DNA of 24,000 bases from Solirubrobacterales bacterium. GTDB lineage: Bacteria; Actinomycetota; Thermoleophilia; Solirubrobacterales; Solirubrobacteraceae. The notes beneath the pieces were generated by a model that worked only from the letters and a program-made list of their open reading frames with translations, was not told where the DNA came from and searched no databases. Location of the stretch: NCBI GenBank assembly GCA_038319025.1, contig JBBQCW010000008.1, positions 28,202 through 52,201 on the forward strand. The letters run 5' to 3'. A program made the position numbers and the translations under genes. Shown here in pieces: positions 1,445 through 9,430 of the stretch (positions are counted from its first letter, which is position 1; each line of letters opens with the position of its first letter).

Positions 1445-2173
1445 ATGTCGTCGACACCGACCCCGCCGGCGACCACCGTCGCCGAGCTGCTCGCCGATCC
1501 GCCGCTGGTGCACGGGCCCGAGGGCGGAAATGACCTCATCACGCATGGTCTGCTACCGGTCGTGCTCGAGTACATCGAGTCGAACGTGGGGCCCGGCGAC
1601 CGCACGCTGGAGACCGGCTGCGGGCTCAGCACCATCCTCTTCGCCATGCGCGGCGCCGAGCACACGTGCATCGTGCCGAACCCGCCGGAGGTCGACCGCG
1701 TGCGCGGCTGGCTCGCCGACCACGGCGTCAGCGACGCGACGCTGACGTTCCACACCGCGACGTCCGAGCGCGTGCTGCCGATGCTCGACCTGGGTGAGTT
1801 GGACTTCGTGCTCATCGACGGTTCGCACTCCTTCCCGCAGGTCTTCATGGACTGGTTCTACGTGCAGGACGCGCTGAAGGTCGGCGGCGCCGTGATCGTC
1901 GACGACGTGCACGTGTGGACCGGCCGGGTGCTGCGCGACTTCCTGCAGGCCGAGCCCGAGTGGTCGCTGGAAAAGCGCTTCCAGGGCCGCACCGTCGCGA
2001 TCCGCAAGGTCGCGAAGACGAACCCGGACAAGATCTGGTTCGAGCAGCCGTACGTCGAGAAGAGGACGCGCGCCAAGGTGATGGGCCGCGCCCGCATGGC
2101 CGCCGCCTTGATCCGCGAGGGCGACACCGAGGAGCTCACCAAGCGCGTGAAGGCGACGCTCGGCCGCAAGTAA
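1445..2173 (+). CDS. class I SAM-dependent methyltransferase (Methyltransf_24-like)
   Basis: SAM-binding motif LETGCGLSTILFA, then FVLIDGSHSFPQVF...LKVGGAVIVDDV. ATG at 1445, with an alternative GTG at 1436. The TAA stop at 2171-2173 abuts tRNA-Cys. Confidence 0.8.
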   Translation: MSSTPTPPATTVAELLADPPLVHGPEGGNDLITHGLLPVVLEYIESNVGPGDRTLETGCGLSTILFAMRGAEHTCIVPNPPEVDRVRGWLADHGVSDATLTFHTATSERVLPMLDLGELDFVLIDGSHSFPQVFMDWFYVQDALKVGGAVIVDDVHVWTGRVLRDFLQAEPEWSLEKRFQGRTVAIRKVAKTNPDKIWFEQPYVEKRTRAKVMGRARMAAALIREGDTEELTKRVKATLGRK

Positions 2174-2243
2174 GGCGACGACCGGAATCGAACCGGTGTA
2201 CACGGCTTTGCAGGCCGCTGCGTAACCACTCCGCCACGTCGCC
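2173..2243 (-). tRNA. tRNA-Cys (anticodon GCA)
   Basis: The reverse complement folds as a cloverleaf: acceptor GGCGACG/CGTCGCC, anticodon stem GCGGC/GCCGT, loop CTGCAAA (U33, GCA, A37), T arm ACCGG-TTCGATT-CCGGT. The discriminator is U, as expected for tRNA-Cys. No encoded CCA. Confidence 0.9.
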
Positions 2244-2306
2244 GGGGAGGTGCCGGAGGGTAGCGGTCCAGCGCCCGAATGGGCGTCTTCGACGGTTCAT
2301 TGTTGC

Positions 2307-2344
2307 GTGACAGCCGTCACATATGCGATGCTGACACCGTGTCA
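2307..2344. promoter_or_regulatory. Two short palindromes upstream of or overlapping the start of the copper-protein gene (candidate operator)
   Basis: GTGAC-agcc-GTCAC lies at 2307-2320 and TGACA-ccg-TGTCA at 2332-2344. They share the TGAC/GTCA half-site and their centres are ~24 bp apart. The second covers the preferred GTG start at 2339. Confidence 0.3.
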
Positions 2345-3973
2345 CGTAACCGGAGTTCCCTTCTCCGCGCGATGAGCGGCGCCCTCGCGGCCTCCGCCAT
2401 CGCGCTCATCTGCACTGCCTCGGCGTCCGCCGCCAACGGTGCCTGGACGAACGAGAAGGGGATCCAGCACCTGCATTTCGAGACGGGCGCAATCGATATC
2501 AAGCCCGGTCAGAACACGGTCGACAATGTGGTCATCCCTGCCCGGCTGAAGCCGGCTGAGGACGGATACCTCATTCGCATGAAGCCCGACCTGCAGTACC
2601 TGAACGGCAAAGTGCCGCCCGTTGATGTAATCCACCTGCATCACGGCGTCTGGCTGAACGCCAGCGGCCGTTCGCCGGCGTCGCCGCTGGGCGGGATCGA
2701 GCCGATCTTCTTCGGCGGTGAGGAGAAGACGGTCTTCCACATTCCCAAGGGCTACGGCTACGCCTACAAGGCCAGCGACGTTTGGATCCTCAACCAGATG
2801 ATCCACAACAACACGCCGAACGCCACGAAGGTCAAGCTGGTGTGGGATCTGGACTTCATCCCAGCGACTACGCCGCTGGCCAAGACGGTCAAGGCCGTGA
2901 CGCCTCTCTGGATGGATGTGCGCCGTGGCTGGGCCTACCCCGTTTTCAACACGATCCGCAACACCGGCGGTCCGGACGGACAGTTCACTTTCCCGCAGGA
3001 CGAGAAGACCAGCCCGTACCGCGCCGGCGGTGCTCAGAACGAGTACACGATGCCGTGGAGCGGCACGATCGTCAGCGCGATCGGCCACCTGCATCCGGGT
3101 GGTCTGCGCGATGACATCGACCTGATCCGGGCCGGCGCAAAGCTGCCGACGTCAAAGGCGTGCCGCAAAGTGGGGCTGAACCCGGAGGGGACGAAGTCTG
3201 CTCGCCGCTGCGTCAAGGCCACCTCCGGTATGAGCTCTGACTCCACCCGCATCTTCCGTAGCCAGGCGCACTACTACGACAAGGCCGGCCCCGTTTCCTG
3301 GGACGTGTCGCTCACCGCCTCGCGCCCTGATTGGCGCGTGAAGATCAAGGCCGGGGACACGCTGCGCATCAGCACCACGTACGAGAACAAGATCTCCTCG
3401 TGGTACGAGAACATGGGCATCGTCCTGCTGTACGTGGCCAAGGACGACAACACCGGCGTCGACCCGTTCGCCAAGCCGGTCGACTGGCGCGGCGTGCTCA
3501 CGCACGGGCATCTGGGCGAGAACGACAATCACGGCGGACTCAAGTCCGGCCTGGTCGATCCGACGAAGGTGTCCTCGGGCCCCGTGGCCACGACCGTCAA
3601 CATCAAGAACTACCAGTTCCAGCCGGGTGACTTGGGCCTGCTGACCACCGGCGCAAAGGTTCCGACGGTGCCCCAGGGCAAGAGCCTGGAGTTCGTCAAC
3701 CAGGACAACGCCGCGTTCGAGTGGCACTCGATCACCACGTGCGCCAGCCCTTGCAACCGCTCGACGGGTATCTCCTACCCGCTGGCCAACGCCGGTCTGC
3801 CCAGCCTGCAGTTCGACTCCGGTCAGCTCGGGTTCGGCGACTCCAGCGGCTCGCCGGTAGTCAATCGGTTGACGTATGACACACCCCCGACGCTCCCGGT
3901 CGGTACGTATACGTACTTCTGCCGGGTCCACAACTTCATGCGGGGTTCCTTCCGCGTGATCAAGTCGATCTAG
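2339..3973 (+). CDS. secreted copper protein: PHM/DBH-like monooxygenase-type N-terminal region fused to a C-terminal type-1 copper (amicyanin/plastocyanin-like) cupredoxin domain
   Basis: The 564-aa ORF-track entry starts at ATG 2279. GTG at 2339 is preferred because it gives a classical signal peptide (SRNRSSLLRAMSGALAASAIALICTASASA/ANG). The C-terminus EFVNQDNAAFEWH...YTYFCRVHNFMRGSFRV gives His, Cys, His and Met type-1 Cu ligands. The N-terminal region has HLHHGVW, QMIHN, GHLHPGG and YENMG in PHM ligand order. Confidence 0.85.
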   Translation: MSRNRSSLLRAMSGALAASAIALICTASASAANGAWTNEKGIQHLHFETGAIDIKPGQNTVDNVVIPARLKPAEDGYLIRMKPDLQYLNGKVPPVDVIHLHHGVWLNASGRSPASPLGGIEPIFFGGEEKTVFHIPKGYGYAYKASDVWILNQMIHNNTPNATKVKLVWDLDFIPATTPLAKTVKAVTPLWMDVRRGWAYPVFNTIRNTGGPDGQFTFPQDEKTSPYRAGGAQNEYTMPWSGTIVSAIGHLHPGGLRDDIDLIRAGAKLPTSKACRKVGLNPEGTKSARRCVKATSGMSSDSTRIFRSQAHYYDKAGPVSWDVSLTASRPDWRVKIKAGDTLRISTTYENKISSWYENMGIVLLYVAKDDNTGVDPFAKPVDWRGVLTHGHLGENDNHGGLKSGLVDPTKVSSGPVATTVNIKNYQFQPGDLGLLTTGAKVPTVPQGKSLEFVNQDNAAFEWHSITTCASPCNRSTGISYPLANAGLPSLQFDSGQLGFGDSSGSPVVNRLTYDTPPTLPVGTYTYFCRVHNFMRGSFRVIKSI

Positions 3974-3993
3974 CGGCCGAGTAGGACCAACGA

Positions 3994-4027
3994 CCCCGCC
4001 GGGATCCCGGCGGGGTTGGTATGTTTC
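3994..4027 (+). terminator. Rho-independent terminator candidate
   Basis: A perfect 22-nt palindrome CCCCGCCGG-GATC-CCGGCGGGG lies at 3994-4015, 20 nt after the stop codon. It is followed by the T-rich TTGGTATGTTT. Confidence 0.6.
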
Positions 4028-4037
4028 CGGCGTCCCA

Positions 4038-4110
4038 GGGCGATTAGCTCAGCTGGGAGAGCGCCGCCTCGACAAGGCGGAGGTCACTGGTTCGAGCCCA
4101 GTATCGCCCA
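4038..4110 (+). tRNA. tRNA-Val (anticodon GAC), with unusual C at position 33
   Basis: Cloverleaf: acceptor GGGCGAT/ATCGCCC, D arm GCTC-AGCTGGGA-GAGC, anticodon stem CCGCC/GGCGG with loop TCGACAA, T arm ACTGG-TTCGAGC-CCAGT, discriminator A. No encoded CCA. Confidence 0.85.
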
Positions 4111-4176
4111 CTTCCCACGCCAGCTCGGGGGCCGCCGTCACCCGGTCACCGCACCGTTGACCGGTCCGGCAACCGG

Positions 4177-4968: not shown

Positions 4969-5095
4969 GCGGCGAGCAGCATAGACGGCGCGGGCTGAGC
5001 GTCGCGAGCAGGGCTTTTGGTTTCGTGACCTTTTCCCCGAGGTGCGCTCTTCAGCGACGAACCACATCCGTTCGTCCACTCAGGAGGGCCTTTCG

Positions 5096-6133
5096 ATGAA
5101 GAAGTCTGCGTGCCTCATGTCCGTCGCCGCGGTGCTGGGAACCGCCGCGCTCGCCCCGACCGCTCAGGCCGCGCCCCAGCGCGGCACCGTCCTGCAGGTT
5201 GACCGCTCCGCCCACGTCGTACGCACGGTCGGCACCGGCGGCTCCGTCGCCTCCTACCGCGTACGGGGTTCGCTCAAGCGCTTGCGACCGGGTGCCCGCA
5301 TCCGGTTTGACGCCTCCGGGCACCACGCCCGTGGCGTGCACGTGACCGGCCGCGCCCGCACCGCCCAGTTCCCGGCGCGCGTGGCCGAGGCCGACGGCGG
5401 CAGCGCGCAGCTCACACTCCCGGACGGCCGGCCGTTCACCGTCGGCACCGGTACAGCTGCCGACGGCGCACCGGCCGGGCACGCCGTCTCGGTCACCGTC
5501 AGCGGCCTGCAACAGGGCCAGAAGGTGTTGGTCACGGTGCACTTCGCCGTCAACGGCGACGTTCTGATCGAGATCGCGCTGCAGCAGGACGCCGCGCCGG
5601 CCGACCAGCCGGCCGACGAGGATCCGGGCCAGGGCGAGGATGCGGGCGACGACCCCGGGAACGGCGACGGCCAGGCTTGCCCGATCGGCCAGAACGAGGT
5701 GGCCGGCAATGTGCGCGGGATCAACCGTGGAGCCGGCACGTTCTCGATCGGCCAGCCGTTCGACGATGATGAGACGTTCCGAGCCCCGGCAGCGCAGCTC
5801 GCCGGCCTGAGCGTGGGGGACACGACGCTCGTGCGTTACGACCCGAGCGCGACGGGCAGCGTGCGCGACGCTCTCCAGGTGCACGTCGTCGCCGGCGCCA
5901 AGCCGGAGGCCGGCTACGGCGTCGCCGAGGGCACTGTCTCGTGGGCCAATCTCGACTCGTCGCTGTTTGCCGTGTGGAAGCCTGCGGACGGCAGCCGTGT
6001 CGTGTTCTCCGGTCCGTGCTGGCTCGTGGTGAGCCTGTGGAAGACGGAGGACGTGAGCGTCATCTACCACGCCGATTCGTCCGGCGACCTGGTCGCCGAC
6101 GCCGTCGCGCCGCGGGACGGGAGCCGCGACTGA
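5096..6133 (+). CDS. secreted repeat protein of unknown function (DUF5666-like beta-barrel repeats, tentative)
   Basis: ATG at 5096 is preceded by AGGAGG at 5083-5088. Signal peptide MKKSACLMSVAAVLGTAALAPTAQA/AP. Four similar segments of the type G-x-V-x-x-V/I-D/N...F/L-x-V flank an acidic linker (PADQPADEDPGQGEDAGDDPGNGDG). Confidence 0.75.
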   Translation: MKKSACLMSVAAVLGTAALAPTAQAAPQRGTVLQVDRSAHVVRTVGTGGSVASYRVRGSLKRLRPGARIRFDASGHHARGVHVTGRARTAQFPARVAEADGGSAQLTLPDGRPFTVGTGTAADGAPAGHAVSVTVSGLQQGQKVLVTVHFAVNGDVLIEIALQQDAAPADQPADEDPGQGEDAGDDPGNGDGQACPIGQNEVAGNVRGINRGAGTFSIGQPFDDDETFRAPAAQLAGLSVGDTTLVRYDPSATGSVRDALQVHVVAGAKPEAGYGVAEGTVSWANLDSSLFAVWKPADGSRVVFSGPCWLVVSLWKTEDVSVIYHADSSGDLVADAVAPRDGSRD

Positions 6134-6218: not shown

Positions 6219-7394
6219 ATGGGACAGGTGATCGGAGCTTCAATCATGCGCACGCAATCCGACGCTCGGCTCGCAGGGCTGGCCGCCGACGGCCACGCAC
6301 TGGCGTTCGAGGCAATCGTTGCGCGCTACGAGCGTGAGCTGCTGCGCCACTGCGCGCGCATCGCTCCTGCGCAGGCCGAGGACGCCGTGCAGCAGACGTT
6401 CCTCAGCGCGTGGACGGCGCTTCAGAAGGGCACCACGGTCCGCGACCTGCGCGGCTGGCTACATCGCATCGCCCATCACGCAGCGCTGCGGACGATCCCG
6501 CCGGCTGGGCTGGCCGTCCAGCTTGCCGATGGGGATGGCACCTGCGAAGCCCTTGAAGCAGCGGTTGAACGACGACTCGCGCTGCGCGGCGCTTTCGCTG
6601 CGGTCGCCGACCTGCCCGAGCGTCAGCGAGAGGCCTTGCTGCGCACCGCCGTGGACGGAGAGAGCCGCGAGTCGGTGGCCGGGCAGCTGGGCATAAGCAC
6701 CGGCGCTGTGCGCCAGCTCGTGCACCGCGCGCGCCAGACGCTTCGCGCCGCCGCCACGGCCGTCGTCCCGGCGCCTCTCCTCGTTCGCCTGGCGGGCGTG
6801 GACGACGGTCTCGCGGGTGGGGTCGGTGGCCTGGGTGCCGCAGGAGCGGGCGTGGCGATGAAGGCCGGCGCCGTTGCGGCCGTCGTCGCGTCGATGGTCG
6901 TGGCGCCGTTGACCGGCCATGGCGGCCGTGCCGACCCGGCGCAGGCGGCCTCGCCTCCGGGCACTCGCAGCCAGGGTACGAGGGAAGCTGCGACCGCCGA
7001 TCGGTCCGTGCCGGTCGCCGGTATCGGCGTAGTCCGTGCGGAAGCGTCCGGGCCAGGCCGCTCGATGGTTCGTCACGGGCTCAGCGGTAAGCGTCGGTCG
7101 CGGCCCGGGCATTCGGGCGCCAGCGCCCCCTCAAGTGCCGGCAAGGGGGCAACTGATCCGTCGAACAGCGGTGACACTGCCCAAGCCGATGACGATCCGC
7201 CGCCGCCCGAGACGGGGGAGGACCTGAACGCCGATCCAGGTCAGATCGATCCCGACGTCCAAGAGGATCCCGGGGATCCGTCCGCCGAAGCTCCAACGCC
7301 GCCGGATGACAGTGCGGACAGCGCGGACGACGCCCCGCCGACGCCCGAGGACGATCCGCCGGCCGACGACGGCCAGGACCAGCCCGGGGACTGA
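6219..7394 (+). CDS. ECF-type sigma-70 family factor with ~210-aa C-terminal extension (hydrophobic segment plus disordered acidic Pro-rich tail)
   Basis: GGGAGGG lies 5 nt upstream of ATG 6219. Region 2-like FEAIVARYERELLRHC...AEDAVQQTFLSAW...WLHRIAHHAAL. Region 4 is LPERQREALLRTAVDGESRESVAGQLGISTGAVRQLVHRARQTLR. Then the Ala/Val-rich GAGVAMKAGAVAAVVASMVVAPL and a D/P/E-rich tail. Confidence 0.85.
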   Translation: MGQVIGASIMRTQSDARLAGLAADGHALAFEAIVARYERELLRHCARIAPAQAEDAVQQTFLSAWTALQKGTTVRDLRGWLHRIAHHAALRTIPPAGLAVQLADGDGTCEALEAAVERRLALRGAFAAVADLPERQREALLRTAVDGESRESVAGQLGISTGAVRQLVHRARQTLRAAATAVVPAPLLVRLAGVDDGLAGGVGGLGAAGAGVAMKAGAVAAVVASMVVAPLTGHGGRADPAQAASPPGTRSQGTREAATADRSVPVAGIGVVRAEASGPGRSMVRHGLSGKRRSRPGHSGASAPSSAGKGATDPSNSGDTAQADDDPPPPETGEDLNADPGQIDPDVQEDPGDPSAEAPTPPDDSADSADDAPPTPEDDPPADDGQDQPGD

Positions 7395-7471: not shown

Positions 7472-9430
7472 ATGCCCCACGCGCCCTCCATCGCCTTCCG
7501 TCATCGTCGCTCCGGGCGTGCGTTCCTGACCGTCACGTTGTCGCTCGCGGCACTCGCCGGCGCCCCCGCCGGAGCCTTGGCCGCCGACCGCCTCGTCAAC
7601 GGGCCGCTCGTGACCGCAGCCGACCTGGGCACATGCCTCGTCACGCCGTGCAAGACCATCGGCTACGCCACCACGCAAGCGGTATCGGGAGATCGAATCG
7701 TTGTCTCGCCCGGGACCTACCACGAGAACGTGGTCCTCCCCTCCGGTGCGACGGGGGAGACGCTGATCGGAGCGACCCGCGCCGTGCGTCCGTTTATCGA
7801 CGGGGGCGCGGGCGTGGCGGTCAAGGTGCTGGGCGCGGGGGCCACCGTGCAGGGCCTGAAACTGCACGGCGACACGAGCGCGGTGGTCGCTCAGTTCAAC
7901 GCGTCGGGCACCGTCATCACCGACAACCTCTTCGACGATACGGCGCTGAACCCCAGCGGGAAGGTTGCGATCAACACAGGTAGCGCCACGATCACGGCGA
8001 ACGACTTCGCGATGCCCGGCGCCCCCGCCGGCGTCAGTCGCGCCTTGGTGGCGAACTCCACCAAAGCGGTCGACATCATCGGTAACACGTTCGACAACTA
8101 CTTCACCGCAGCCCAGTACAACATCGGCACCGCCGCGCCATCAGTGGTGCGCGACAACGTGATCATGAACGTCCATGGCGCGCCCCCGGGGGTCGGCGTT
8201 GGCCTCTTCATATTCGGATCGGCCGCCGTCACCGGCAACACGATCGGCGCCACGCCCGTCGCCAACGGCGGCGCCATCGGCATCAACCTGCGGGACTTTT
8301 CCGTGCCGGCCACCGACGTGACAGCGCGCAACCGCGTCTTCGGGTTCCCCAACTCCGGGATCGAGACTGAGCTCTCGGTGGCCGGTTCCAGCGCGACCAT
8401 GCGCGGCGATGTGCTCAGCAACGATCACTCCGGGTTCGTGCTGTTCGGCGGGACCTCGACGATTATTGGCGCAACGGTCTACGACAACAACAACTTCGAC
8501 GTGTACCTGGGCAGCGCCAACCTGCACCTGACCATGGCGTCGAGCATCGTCGGCGCCAAAGGCATCTTTCCGGGCGCAGTCGGGGCCGATTGCTCCATCA
8601 CGACATCGCGGGGTCCCACCACCACGGGCCCGTCATCGTGCGATCACTTCCAGACCAGCGCAAGCCCAGCGTTCGTAGGCCCGTCCGACTACCGGCTTAC
8701 CGCCGCCTCGCCGCTTATCGACACGGGTGACCCTGCTGCGCCCGACGCCGGGGAACTGGACATCGACGGCAACCCGCGCGCGGTGGTCGGCACGGACGCG
8801 GCGAAGTGCCTGCCGGCACGGCGCGACATGGGCGCCTACGAGTTCGTGCCTGCCCCCGCGTTTGTCTGCCCGCCCGTACCCCTGGTCGACCCGCTGCCCG
8901 TGGCGCCGCCGGTCATCGACCCGCCGCCCGTCATCCCGCCCGTCCTCGCGCCCGCCGGGTTAACGGTCCTGGACGACTCCGGAACACCGGTGACCGTGGC
9001 CGTCGACGGCGGCCCGACCGTGCGCTTGGCCGCCGGGAGCGTGGGCGCAACGCTCTCGCTCAAGGCAGGCACGCACACCGTGCGCGTCAGGCCCCGCAAG
9101 GGCAAGGTCGTGACTGCGACCATCGTCCTCACACCCGGTCAGCTCGGGGTGGTCGTGGTGACGACGTCACATCGTCGGCTGAGGCTCCGCGCCACCCGGA
9201 TCGCCCCGGGCGTACGGCGCCTACTCTCGCTCCTGCCCGGCACCCAGCGACTCCGCGTGGGGACGGCAAAAGCCAAGCGGGTTCGCCACGGGGCGTTCGG
9301 CACGCTGCCCGCCGCCGCAACCAGAGTGAGCGTCGGCGGGGGCCGGGTCGCACTGGTCGGCCATCCTCAGCTCGCGGTCCTCCTGCTCCGCCACCGGCGG
9401 CCGGTCGCCGTCATCCGCTCGGCGCCCTGA
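7472..9430 (+). CDS. secreted right-handed parallel beta-helix protein with choice-of-anchor-Q-like motif, Pro-rich linker and basic C-terminal domain
   Basis: Signal peptide ...LSLAALAGAPAGALA/AD. CKTIGYATTQAVSGDRIVVSPGTYHENVVL is a DUF1565/PbH1-type N-terminal cap, followed by repeated G-N-T/I beta-helix turns. DIDGNPRAVVGTDAAKCLPARRDMGAYEF is CoA-Q-like. Linker PPVPLVDPLPVAPPVIDPPPVIPPVLAP. Confidence 0.8.
   Translation: MPHAPSIAFRHRRSGRAFLTVTLSLAALAGAPAGALAADRLVNGPLVTAADLGTCLVTPCKTIGYATTQAVSGDRIVVSPGTYHENVVLPSGATGETLIGATRAVRPFIDGGAGVAVKVLGAGATVQGLKLHGDTSAVVAQFNASGTVITDNLFDDTALNPSGKVAINTGSATITANDFAMPGAPAGVSRALVANSTKAVDIIGNTFDNYFTAAQYNIGTAAPSVVRDNVIMNVHGAPPGVGVGLFIFGSAAVTGNTIGATPVANGGAIGINLRDFSVPATDVTARNRVFGFPNSGIETELSVAGSSATMRGDVLSNDHSGFVLFGGTSTIIGATVYDNNNFDVYLGSANLHLTMASSIVGAKGIFPGAVGADCSITTSRGPTTTGPSSCDHFQTSASPAFVGPSDYRLTAASPLIDTGDPAAPDAGELDIDGNPRAVVGTDAAKCLPARRDMGAYEFVPAPAFVCPPVPLVDPLPVAPPVIDPPPVIPPVLAPAGLTVLDDSGTPVTVAVDGGPTVRLAAGSVGATLSLKAGTHTVRVRPRKGKVVTATIVLTPGQLGVVVVTTSHRRLRLRATRIAPGVRRLLSLLPGTQRLRVGTAKAKRVRHGAFGTLPAAATRVSVGGGRVALVGHPQLAVLLLRHRRPVAVIRSAP

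Follow-up and report, generated by a model that had tools for sequence, protein, structure and literature searches.

A predicted secreted copper protein of Solirubrobacterales that joins a PHM/DBH-like core to a type-1 copper domain

Does a bacterial gene encode the catalytic core of a copper monooxygenase together with a blue copper domain in a single exported chain? This question is raised by a locus of a soil bacterium of the Solirubrobacterales, where an earlier note, made from the DNA letters, had proposed that a core like that of peptidylglycine alpha-hydroxylating monooxygenase (PHM) and dopamine beta-monooxygenase (DBH), with its CuH and CuM sites, is fused in cis to a type-1 copper domain acting as electron donor. 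PHM and DBH belong to the copper type II ascorbate-dependent monooxygenases and are the textbook example of the non-coupled binuclear copper class; to our knowledge they have been studied almost only in animals. We analyzed the window, i.e., the whole stretch of 24,000 nt carrying the locus (contig JBBQCW010000008.1, positions 28,202 to 52,201); all features described below lie on its + strand.

The gene, its export signal, and its genomic surroundings

An open reading frame of 564 aa is present at 2279..3973 of the window, and within it the CDS of the predicted secreted three-domain copper protein was delimited at 2339..3973 (stop codon at 3971-3973) from the ORF list, an identical NCBI protein, and a reading of the start site. 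The NCBI protein (P0001, 533 aa) is 100% identical, and its annotated start is the ATG at 2372, which is M32 of the longer frame. Residues are numbered here from this methionine, so that the numbers of the earlier note equal ours plus 31. The start site is uncertain among GTG 2339, ATG 2372, and ATG 2279. We favor GTG 2339 over the NCBI start, because the signal peptide that begins there has a charged n-region and is the better one (VSRNRSSLLRAM...ASA, then ANG); of the two positions in the earlier note, the feature start at 2339 is kept and the ORF-track ATG 2279, from which its residues were counted, is unlikely to be the true start. The mature protein is identical whichever start is used. 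The nucleotide positions given earlier for H121/H122 (nt 2639-2644), H176 (nt 2804), H270/H272 (nt 3086-3094), and M379 (nt 3413) and the C-terminal H483, C548, H551, and M554 were all correct.

The Sec-type signal peptide (2339..2431; VSRNRSSLLRAMSGALAASAIALICTASASA, followed by ANGAW) was read from the sequence and from hydrophobic N-termini aligned across all homologues; its predicted cleavage after A-S-A obeys the AXA rule, in agreement with the secreted product proposed before. In one homologue, P0104, a lipobox (LSSC) takes the place of the Sec-type cleavage site. Directly 3' of the stop codon lies an intrinsic-terminator-like stem-loop (3991..4018) with a 12 bp stem including 10 G-C pairs, and the gene is therefore monocistronic. 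The ORF is real and its product is secreted; both the gene and its export signal we regard as established.

The protein belongs to a family of more than 2,299 members, many of them annotated as plastocyanin by JGI, which occurs in Thermoleophilia and Acidimicrobiia and is represented in at least 578 species genomes. Over 80 genome loci and 2 contigs we found no conserved partner gene (donor, chaperone, or substrate), and the survey of neighbors suggested earlier thus gave no hint of a substrate. The real recurrent neighbors are UvrB, UvrA, an ABC transporter, an SDR, and pantoate ligase, and this neighborhood is housekeeping synteny, not functional partnership. An apparent upstream gene at 44 loci proved to be spurious, a shadow ORF in another frame of the target gene. 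A mobile island was considered on the grounds of the flanking tRNAs and a dip in GC content and was rejected, since the order tRNA-Cys, gene, tRNA-Val is kept in related Solirubrobacteraceae and core genes (ThrRS, IF3, PheS) surround the locus.

Predicted fold and proposed copper ligands of the N-terminal core

AlphaFold2 models of the full-length protein (pLDDT 86.5, pTM 0.87) and of the core only (pLDDT 88.9, pTM 0.89) were compared with the PDB by Foldseek, the structural check that had been suggested for this protein. PHM and DBH made up 22 of the 23 top matches of the full-length model and all 19 top matches of the N-core model, with E 1.3e-7 to 3e-5, probability 1.0, and TM up to 0.55-0.60 over both. 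The two models predict the two-beta-sandwich topology of PHM: an N-terminal subdomain (residues 25-200; 2444..2971), placed by the models, Foldseek, and hhalign, resembles the PHM CuH subdomain, and a second (residues 201-372; 2972..3487), placed by the models and Foldseek, resembles the CuM subdomain. The second subdomain carries a clade-specific surface insertion (residues ~258-291; 3143..3244) with C264 and C280, which occupies columns ~355-425 of the homologue alignment, is poorly conserved, and is missing in most homologues. These comparisons support a PHM/DBH-like core, and that its predicted fold is of this kind we take as established.

In the core-only model the predicted packing of the subdomains resembles most closely the "closed" PHM/DBH conformers 6ala_A and 4zel_A (TMq 0.52-0.55, versus 0.44-0.49 for canonical PHM and 0.42 for the fully open 8dsj), the conformer chosen by AlphaFold being weak evidence. 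In the closed conformers the coppers are ~4-5 Å apart, and whether an open (11 Å) or a closed binuclear arrangement operates in catalysis is currently disputed, the closed near-binuclear one being under discussion as the form in which PHM and DBH react (PMC12164859).

Membership in the corresponding sequence families, which the earlier note had proposed to check, was not borne out, whereas the other computational checks that were run in answer to the note favored its interpretation. Pfam PF01082 (Cu2_monooxygen) and PF03712 (Cu2_monoox_C) did not match the window protein at E<=10, nor any of 66 divergent relatives at E<=1, and the protein is therefore a remote structural relative of PHM/DBH, not a member of the family. 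The N-terminal region likewise found nothing in single-sequence or profile HMM searches of Pfam, NCBIfam, and PDB sequences. By hhalign, the local comparison with a 76-sequence PHM alignment was marginal (P 0.028 overall, null 0.27); the N-subdomain matched the PHM N-subdomain with P 0.0042, and the correct pairing of subdomains (P 0.004) beat the mismatched ones (0.03-0.6). The global mode gave no support (P 0.7), and since the global comparison failed and the local one was marginal, we claim no sequence-level PHM family membership. In PHM, the carboxylate and backbone of the peptide substrate are bound by R240, N316, and Y318; these residues are absent here, the register with the aligned ligands giving I237, I350, and L352. 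It follows that the protein is no orthologue with specificity for peptidylglycine, and, as the PHM disulfides are missing together with these binders, its chemistry may differ from that of PHM.

We then consider the six residues proposed as copper ligands, whose conservation was counted in 181 aligned homologues with identity down to ~35% (denominators of ~170-180 per position). The proposed CuH ligands H90 and H91 (H121/H122 before; codons 2639..2644), equivalent to PHM H107/H108, are conserved in 173/173 and 170/170 homologues, and the proposed third ligand H145 (formerly H176), equivalent to PHM H172 and encoded within M143-I-H145 (2798..2806), in 176/177. For the candidate CuM site, H239 and H241 in H239-L-H241 (formerly H270/H272; 3086..3094), equivalent to PHM H242/H244, are each present in 173 of 179, and M348 (formerly M379; 3413..3415), the proposed counterpart of PHM M314, in 165 of 168. 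The six are 97-100% conserved, as had been hoped of true ligands, and this conservation of the motifs goes far beyond chance. All five histidines were aligned directly by hhalign to PAM 107/108/172/242/244; the near-invariance of the six proposed ligands and their PHM-equivalent alignment can be considered established. The methionine is placed indirectly: M348 reaches PAM M314 only via M391 of Nod19 (see below), while the direct hhalign comparison offsets it by a 9-residue loop gap. In the secondary structure of the model M348 immediately precedes the last long strand, and M314 of PHM occupies the same place.

The arrangement that we required of a CuH site, two adjacent histidines on one strand with a third ~55-65 residues on, is found in H90/H91/H145, and that of a CuM site, H-x-H and a methionine ~70 residues on at the start of the last strand, in H239/H241 and M348, with the methionine placed via Nod19. 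PHM and DBH carry the PROSITE-type signatures H-H-M-x2-F-x-C and H-x-F-x4-H-T-H-x2-G. The window protein matches neither of them, as its sequence reads HHGVWLN and GTIVSAIGHLHPGG, and agreement is limited to the ligand residues and the last G; of the match to the first signature claimed earlier, the HH pair remains. Other residues are conserved as well: M143 (174/176, in M-x-H145), which aligned to PHM Q170, and H88 (164/173). On these near-invariant residues the earlier note had not remarked, nor on the linker motif and the Cys pair C457/C461 described below. Because H88, M143, and the linker residues H378, H380, and H387 (see below) are also conserved, the sequence suggests that the metal sites may differ from a simple copy of those of PHM.

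The sole curated family with a sequence-level signal for the core is Pfam SURNod19 (PF07712; MtN19/NOD19), which matched 6 of the 66 divergent relatives (best E 6.3e-6). The window protein itself had no PF07712 match, and relatives scanned individually scored 18.8, 13.3, and 11.7 bits, under the gathering threshold of 25 bits. When 170 bacterial cores were compared with 97 plant Nod19 sequences by hhalign, 268-280 columns were aligned with a local P of 6e-4; the global comparison gave P 1.4e-6 and a probability of 81%, with reversed nulls at P 0.47-0.57 and, over both comparisons, at P 0.26-0.57, and homology to authentic SURNod19 members was found over the full length. More specifically, H92, H93, H172, H316, H318, and M391 of the Nod19 protein P0521 aligned to H90, H91, H145, H239, H241, and M348 of the window protein, M391 aligned to PAM M314, and the same six residues are kept in 96-97 of the 97 plant sequences. 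Judged by these alignments, the bacterial N-terminal core is a remote homologue of SURNod19, a homology that we regard as established.

No solved Nod19 structure was found by sequence search, and text matches to "MtN19" in Pseudomonas papers refer to the cloning vector MTN1907, not to Nod19. Nod19/MtN19 is widely reported in studies of stress, nodulation, and virus interaction, yet its function is described as unknown (PMC9632046, PMC10326430); therefore, no function was transferred from Nod19, and the inference runs from the bacterial analysis to Nod19. Plant Nod19 is among the validated targets of miR398, the microRNA of copper economy, and is co-regulated with Cu/Zn-SOD (PMC3882225), which hints independently at copper binding in the superfamily.

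The type-1 copper domain and the His-rich linker

The C-terminal part of the protein (residues ~400-533; 3569..3970) is an amicyanin-like type-1 (blue) copper cupredoxin domain by profile, Foldseek, and ligand conservation, as the earlier note had recognized from the ligand spacing H...C-x2-H-x2-M, which is intact. The ligands are H452 (3725-3727; conserved in 158/177), C517 (3920-3922; 156/170), H520 (3929-3931; 154/170), and M523 (3938-3940; 151/169), and the exceptions are mostly gaps or truncated sequences. The family profile matched PDB amicyanins with E 7.5e-4. Two curated models scored below their cut-offs: TIGR02657 with E 0.0034 and 17.7 bits, where 110.2 are required, and Cupredoxin_1 with E 0.048. 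The predicted structure of the domain matched amicyanin in Foldseek with TMt 0.63-0.65 and probability 1.0, and its C-terminal loop reads C-R-V-H-N-F-M-R-G where amicyanin has C-T-P-H-P-F-M-R-G. There are no mau (methylamine dehydrogenase) genes in the window.

Core and cupredoxin meet at a His-rich linker, T-H-G-H-L-G-E-N-D-N-H-G-G (residues 377-389; 3500..3538), defined by its conservation. In the family the motif reads T377-H-G-H-L-x-E-N-D-N-H-G-G389, with H378 kept in 165/166, E383 in 162/169, H380 in 142/167, and H387 in 133/166; the linker may relay electrons, form an interface between the domains, or bind a further metal.

Both the core and the type-1 motif sets are present in 136 of the 181 relatives, the remainder being mostly fragments, and conservation is higher in the core than in the cupredoxin. 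An intact type-1 site and a fusion kept across the family are thereby established. One relative, P0199, has in addition a PQQ-type propeller and a second cupredoxin, an architecture consistent with an electron-supply chain; a fusion to cytochrome c as an alternative donor was not seen, as no relative contains a CxxCH motif. In the literature we found no description of a bacterial enzyme with a PHM-like core and a cupredoxin, in line with the earlier statement that no characterized enzyme has this architecture.

Proposed function, alternatives, and relation to known systems

Based on these results, we propose, with a probability of roughly 0.55, that the gene product is a secreted copper enzyme which acts on its own and bears three or more copper sites, a PHM/DBH-class core being coupled to a type-1 copper domain. 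Copper binding as such, the route of the electrons and the direction in which they move, the monooxygenase chemistry, and all that concerns the substrate are inferred. The N-terminal ~350 residues would be the two-beta-sandwich catalytic core of the non-coupled binuclear copper monooxygenases, with H90, H91, and H145 forming a CuH-like electron-transfer site and H239, H241, and M348 a CuM-like O2-activating site, and the C-terminal ~130 residues (H452, C517, H520, M523) a type-1 copper domain predicted to pack rigidly on the core. The blue copper would be reduced, one electron at a time, by an extracellular donor and would in turn reduce the CuH-like site, a task that falls to ascorbate in animals; the type-1 domain may thus be a built-in electron donor replacing ascorbate. 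The CuM-like site would bind O2 and then hydroxylate, or otherwise oxidize, a C-H bond of an extracellular substrate.

The same features could be read as a blue copper oxidase following the logic of multicopper oxidases, where the type-1 copper would oxidize a metal ion, such as Cu(I), Fe(II), or Mn(II), or a phenol and the electrons would move inward to the two PHM-like coppers, which, lying close to each other, would reduce O2 to H2O2 or water, with the substrate not oxygenated. Such a reading would fit a secreted protein that has no partner genes and acts on abundant small substrates, it agrees with the loss of the PHM substrate-binding residues, and the predicted packing is nearest to conformers whose coppers lie ~4-5 Å apart (PMC12164859). 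However, the conformer chosen by AlphaFold is weak evidence, trinuclear-cluster motifs (H-C-H) are absent, and a His2Met site typically serves to activate O2 for C-H abstraction, not to carry out four-electron reduction, so that we consider this oxidase unlikely. An analogue of the nitrite/NO-type reductases would work as NirK does, with the type-1 copper supplying electrons to a catalytic His3 copper (H90/H91/H145) at which a small nitrogen oxyanion is reduced. It would share the logic of a type-1 plus a His3 site, and 6hbe and 9cck do appear in the full-length Foldseek list. They do so through the cupredoxin domain only (TM 0.15) and are gone with the core-only model, the second triad (His2Met) would be left unexplained, and no denitrification genes lie nearby, all of which makes such a reductase very improbable.

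A non-catalytic copper-handling or electron-carrier protein, with the cupredoxin as functional unit and the beta-sandwiches binding or buffering copper or anchoring it in the envelope, would be consistent with the JGI plastocyanin annotation, with the many conserved His and Met, and with the absence of substrate-related neighbors. The conserved residues, however, reproduce both PHM triads exactly, in the same order and on the same predicted fold, and are not scattered His/Met patches; moreover, the core is better conserved than the cupredoxin, and the plant homologues keep the core without any cupredoxin. We consider a carrier of this sort quite unlikely. PNGase F belongs to the same fold superfamily as PHM, and 3ks7, 7zgn, and 9lwg are present in the Foldseek list, which could point to a glycan-binding or hydrolytic protein with purely structural His and Met. 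These matches are far weaker (E 2.6e-3 or worse and TM ~0.3, versus E 1e-7 and TM 0.5-0.6 for PHM/DBH), the invariant residues coincide with the PHM copper ligands, and fusion of a redox domain would make no sense for a hydrolase; this last reading is barely plausible.

If the protein is indeed a monooxygenase with its own blue copper, a large bacterial family with the PHM fold and ligands and a covalent type-1 copper would allow intramolecular electron delivery to a CuH-like site to be followed optically at ~600 nm. The family would offer a bacterially expressible C-H-oxidizing scaffold that may not need ascorbate, and it bears on the dispute over the open (11 Å) and closed binuclear copper arrangements (PMC12164859). 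For the plant and fungal Nod19/MtN19 proteins, it provides a testable hypothesis, that of a copper-dependent oxygenase. Tentatively, and with somewhat less than even odds, we also suggest that the bacterial family and plant/fungal SURNod19 form an unrecognized, kingdom-spanning branch of PHM/DBH-type monooxygenases, whose bacterial branch would be ascorbate-independent, with a blue copper wired via the His-rich linker and perhaps closed near-binuclear catalytic coppers; such a branch, if true, would explain the control of plant Nod19 by miR398.

In comparison with known systems, the window protein resembles PHM/DBH in the predicted two-beta-sandwich catalytic core, for which these enzymes are the best structural matches, in the HH...H (CuH) and HxH...M (CuM) motifs with the same order and similar spacing, and in being exported, as PHM/DBH are exported or lumen-facing. 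It differs in being bacterial (Actinomycetota), in lacking the PHM disulfides and a DOMON domain, in its added covalent type-1 copper domain and His-rich linker, and in a predicted subdomain packing like that of the closed conformer. With plant Nod19 it shares a signal peptide; Nod19 has instead an insertion rich in Cys and, at its C-terminus, a transmembrane helix; ending after the Met strand, it has neither the His-rich linker nor a cupredoxin. The cupredoxin is like amicyanin in its ligand set, its H-x-F-M-R-G loop, and its fold, and unlike it in being fused in cis to an enzyme core, in scoring far under the TIGR02657 equivalog cut-off, and in having two additional conserved cysteines, the pair C457/C461, shortly after the first His ligand. 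Finally, 6hbe (NirK with a C-terminal cupredoxin) and 9cck (a Nitrosopumilus MCO with a C-terminal cupredoxin) likewise join a catalytic copper module to a C-terminal type-1 domain, but their catalytic modules are built of cupredoxin domains, whereas that of the window protein is predicted to be an unrelated PHM-type jelly roll.

The gene and its predicted fold

The open reading frame placed by the earlier note at 2279..3973 on the forward strand (564 aa) is present in the window, and all the residues and nucleotide positions assigned to it were confirmed. The length of the 100% identical NCBI protein (P0001), 533 aa, places its start at M32, nt 2372, and residues are numbered here from this Met; the numbers used in the earlier note are higher by 31. 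A GTG at 2339, the coordinate adopted in the earlier note, extends the N-terminus by a positively charged n-region (VSRNRSSLLRAM-) resembling the signal peptides of homologues, and on this basis we favour it over nt 2372. The mature protein would be identical for either start, with predicted cleavage between ASA and ANG. A divergent tRNA-Cys (2173-2243, minus strand) and a tRNA-Val (4038-4111, plus strand) flank the gene. A strong stem-loop terminator stands after it at 3991-4018, which leaves the gene monocistronic.

The N-terminal region, proposed from motif matches to be a PHM/DBH-like two-copper core, was not recognised by Pfam, NCBIfam and PDB-sequence searches. An AlphaFold2 model of the full-length protein, built on a 51-sequence alignment, reached pLDDT 86.5 and pTM 0.87, the latter suggesting that the three domains are arranged in a defined way. 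Of the 23 top matches of this model in a Foldseek search of the PDB, 22 were PHM or human DBH (E 8e-7 to 3e-5, probability 1.0), and amicyanin matched the C-terminal domain (TMt 0.63-0.65). With a core-only model (residues 25-372; pLDDT 88.9, pTM 0.89), all 19 top matches were PHM or DBH (E 1.3e-7 to 2.5e-5, TM up to 0.55/0.60), while the matches to double-jelly-roll capsid proteins and PNGase F were much poorer (E 7e-5 at best, TM <=0.35). The structure search of predicted models is therefore consistent with the proposed PHM-like fold and argues against an unrelated one. By conformer, TM-scores of the model were 0.52/0.60 for closed H108A-citrate PHM (6ala), 0.55 for DBH chain A, intermediate at 0.44-0.49 for canonical 11 Å PHM, and lowest, 0.42, for fully open 8dsj. 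This order, with the conformers taken as in a recent PHM review, hints at a closed-like packing of the subdomains, which is model-dependent.

Conserved putative ligands, kinship with SURNod19 and comparison with PHM

A word-indexed search returned more than 2,299 homologues, called hypothetical protein at NCBI and 'plastocyanin' or 'hypothetical protein' at JGI, some being nameless. The N-terminal region, used by itself as query in an exhaustive HMMER search, matched 1,052 representatives of 50% identity clusters. According to a genome scan, at least 578 species-representative genomes carry the gene, nearly all of them soil MAGs of the Thermoleophilia (Solirubrobacteraceae, Baekduia, Conexibacteraceae, Thermoleophilaceae) and Acidimicrobiia.

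The ligands proposed in the earlier note turned out to be essentially invariant across 181 aligned sequences: at the CuH-like site H90 (173/173), H91 (170/170) and H145 (176/177), at the CuM-like site H239 and H241 (173/179 each) and M348 (165/168), and at the type-1 site H452 (158/177), C517 (156/170), H520 (154/170) and M523 (151/169), where the exceptions are mostly gaps or truncations. Core motifs and the C-terminal C-x2-H-x2-M occur together in 136/181 sequences, the remainder being mostly fragments, which argues that the core-cupredoxin fusion is ancestral in the bacterial family and not a one-off.

Several near-invariant residues had not been listed in the earlier note. H88 (2633-2635; 164/173, Met instead in 9 sequences), in an H-x-H-H motif, and M143 (2798-2800; 174/176), in an M-x-H motif, flank the CuH-like ligands; the CuH-like site may be richer in ligands than that of PHM. 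Between core and cupredoxin runs a near-invariant His-rich linker, THGHLxENDNHGG (3500-3538; H378 165/166), that could relay electrons, form the interface between domains or bind a fourth metal. Just past the first type-1 His ligand, the conserved pair C457-x3-C461 (TxCxxPCNRSTG, 3740-3754) is likely to be a disulfide stapling a loop close to the copper; amicyanin lacks a counterpart. In this Solirubrobacteraceae clade and related sequences, about 34 residues that include two Cys (C264, C280; 3143-3244) are inserted at the surface, and this insertion is missing from most homologues; a few homologues carry other, longer insertions at the same place.

When 66 divergent relatives were scanned individually against Pfam, none matched the Cu2_monooxygen models, and 6 matched PF07712, 'Stress up-regulated Nod 19' (best E 6.3e-6); the matches traceable to single proteins are below threshold, yet collinear. 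The relatives tied to this link are P0125, P0170 and P0241, plant Nod19 proteins are P0408-P0527, and the window core spans 2444-3487. An authentic plant Nod19 sequence (supplement of PMC9203031) used as query gave 939 homologues, of which the 120 listed are all annotated PF07712, including Phaseolus PHAVU_006G127300 (P0521). Alignment of 170 bacterial cores with 97 plant Nod19 sequences by hhalign was full-length (268-280 columns; local P 6e-4, global P 1.4e-6, probability 81%), against P 0.26-0.57 for reversed nulls. The six core ligands align with Nod19 H92, H93, H172, H316, H318 and M391, conserved in 96-97 of the 97 plant sequences. Judged by these profiles, the core domain and plant/fungal SURNod19 (MtN19/NOD19, PF07712) are remotely homologous. 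The His-rich linker motif is absent from plant Nod19 and confined to the cupredoxin-bearing bacterial branch.

The function of Nod19 is 'currently unknown' (PMC9632046); in Arabidopsis NOD19 the SURNod19 domain lies between a signal peptide and a C-terminal transmembrane helix (PMC10326430). Targeting of bean Nod19 by miR398b has been validated, and Nod19, like Cu/Zn-SOD, goes down under copper deficiency and up under copper excess (PMC3882225), the behaviour to be expected from a copper protein that is dispensable. This regulation offers independent, circumstantial support for copper binding in the superfamily, and miR398 targeting together with the six shared His/Met positions suggests that Nod19 proteins are PHM-like copper enzymes. 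A literature search retrieved nothing linking Nod19 to PHM or copper binding, and a sequence search found no solved Nod19 structure.

A reference PHM sequence from PDB entry 4e4z_A, with homologues all annotated PF01082 and PF03712, was used for profile-profile alignment. The overall link between the bacterial family and PHM is statistically marginal (P 0.028 vs 0.27 for the reversed null); the N-subdomains paired at P 0.0042, against 0.03-0.6 for mismatched subdomains. Despite this marginal link, the residue mapping is specific: the script-extracted alignment sets H90, H91, M143, H145, H239 and H241 on PAM 107, 108, Q170, 172, 242 and 244, and the strand 'vk.GD.L' on PHM 'i..GD.lAARC'. M348 is offset in the direct alignment because the preceding loop is 9 residues shorter than in PHM, and it maps onto PHM M314 via Nod19, whose local alignment with PHM, not significant alone, sets Nod19 M391 on M314. 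P0270, the cluster representative of rat PHM, has Ala at position 107 and appears to be an H107A mutant chain from the PDB; database representatives can thus be engineered variants, and this Ala was allowed for when reading the alignments.

Genomic context

Clustering of ORFs from 80 genome loci gave no conserved functional neighbour: recurrent neighbours are housekeeping synteny only (UvrB, UvrA, ABC transporter, SDR, pantoate ligase), and the largest apparent 'neighbour' was rejected as a shadow ORF of the target gene itself. Two long contigs compared had nothing in common around the gene. In about 20 loci among L018-L082 (Thermoleophilaceae and related), uvrB upstream and uvrA downstream bracket the gene, a conserved housekeeping synteny without obvious functional meaning.

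The window flanks hold a MarR regulator, a cupin, two methyltransferases, an ECF sigma factor and core genes including ThrRS, IF3 and PheS, and G+C over 2001-4000 is 64-65% at the gene, compared with 67-73% on either side. Related Solirubrobacteraceae (loci L004, L005, L006, L017) share the tRNA-Cys/gene/tRNA-Val arrangement, which argues against a mobile island. At locus L007 both tRNAs also flank the gene, with several extra genes before tRNA-Val, and at L003 another gene, of 1.8 kb, lies between the two tRNAs. The ECF-type sigma factor at 6219-7394 (regions 2 and 4) has a Pro/Asp/Ala-rich C-terminal extension of about 200 residues with a hydrophobic stretch, and may be a fused anti-sigma or membrane-anchored sigma factor. 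Large predicted secreted proteins with signal peptides, at 5042-6133 (363 aa) and 7472-9430 (652 aa), had no Pfam match.

Proposed working and comparison with known enzymes

According to the reading we consider best supported, with a probability of roughly 0.55, the protein is a secreted enzyme that carries three or more coppers. Its type-1 site would take single electrons from an external donor and relay them to the CuH-like site, possibly via the conserved His-rich linker; from there they would reach the CuM-like His2Met site, where O2 would be activated for C-H oxidation of an extracellular substrate. Of this reading, the analysis shows the predicted fold, the ligand residues, the export signal and the fusion, while copper binding, the route of the electrons, the chemistry and the substrate are inferred. 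The closed-like packing of the model keeps alive another arrangement, which we hold to be rather improbable, in which the two core coppers, acting as a near-binuclear site, would reduce O2, and the substrate would be oxidised at the type-1 copper. A copper carrier or buffer, or a NirK-like reductase, is less likely, as is a PNGase-like protein, since PNGase F has its fold superfamily in common with PHM but matched the core model far more weakly.

In the distant relative P0199 (/P0407; 1,211 aa, on a 2.1 Mb contig), core and cupredoxin are joined to a PQQ-type beta-propeller (PF13360/PF01011) and a second, plastocyanin-like cupredoxin, a domain set compatible with what may be a fused electron-supply chain from dehydrogenase to oxygenase. 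No CxxCH haem motif occurs in any relative.

R240, N316 and Y318, the substrate binders of PHM, correspond to I237, I350 and L352 in the window protein, and the PHM disulfides are absent from it; the protein is therefore no peptidylglycine hydroxylase orthologue. The protein matches neither the Pfam models of the PHM/DBH family nor its PROSITE-style signatures. The searchable literature gave no description of the core-cupredoxin combination, the bacterial family or the SURNod19 kinship. In conclusion, proteins hitherto annotated as hypothetical or plastocyanin combine two known kinds of domain, a PHM/DBH-type core and an amicyanin-type cupredoxin, and the window protein is, in its predicted fold and working, like the PHM/DBH core while standing outside that sequence family.
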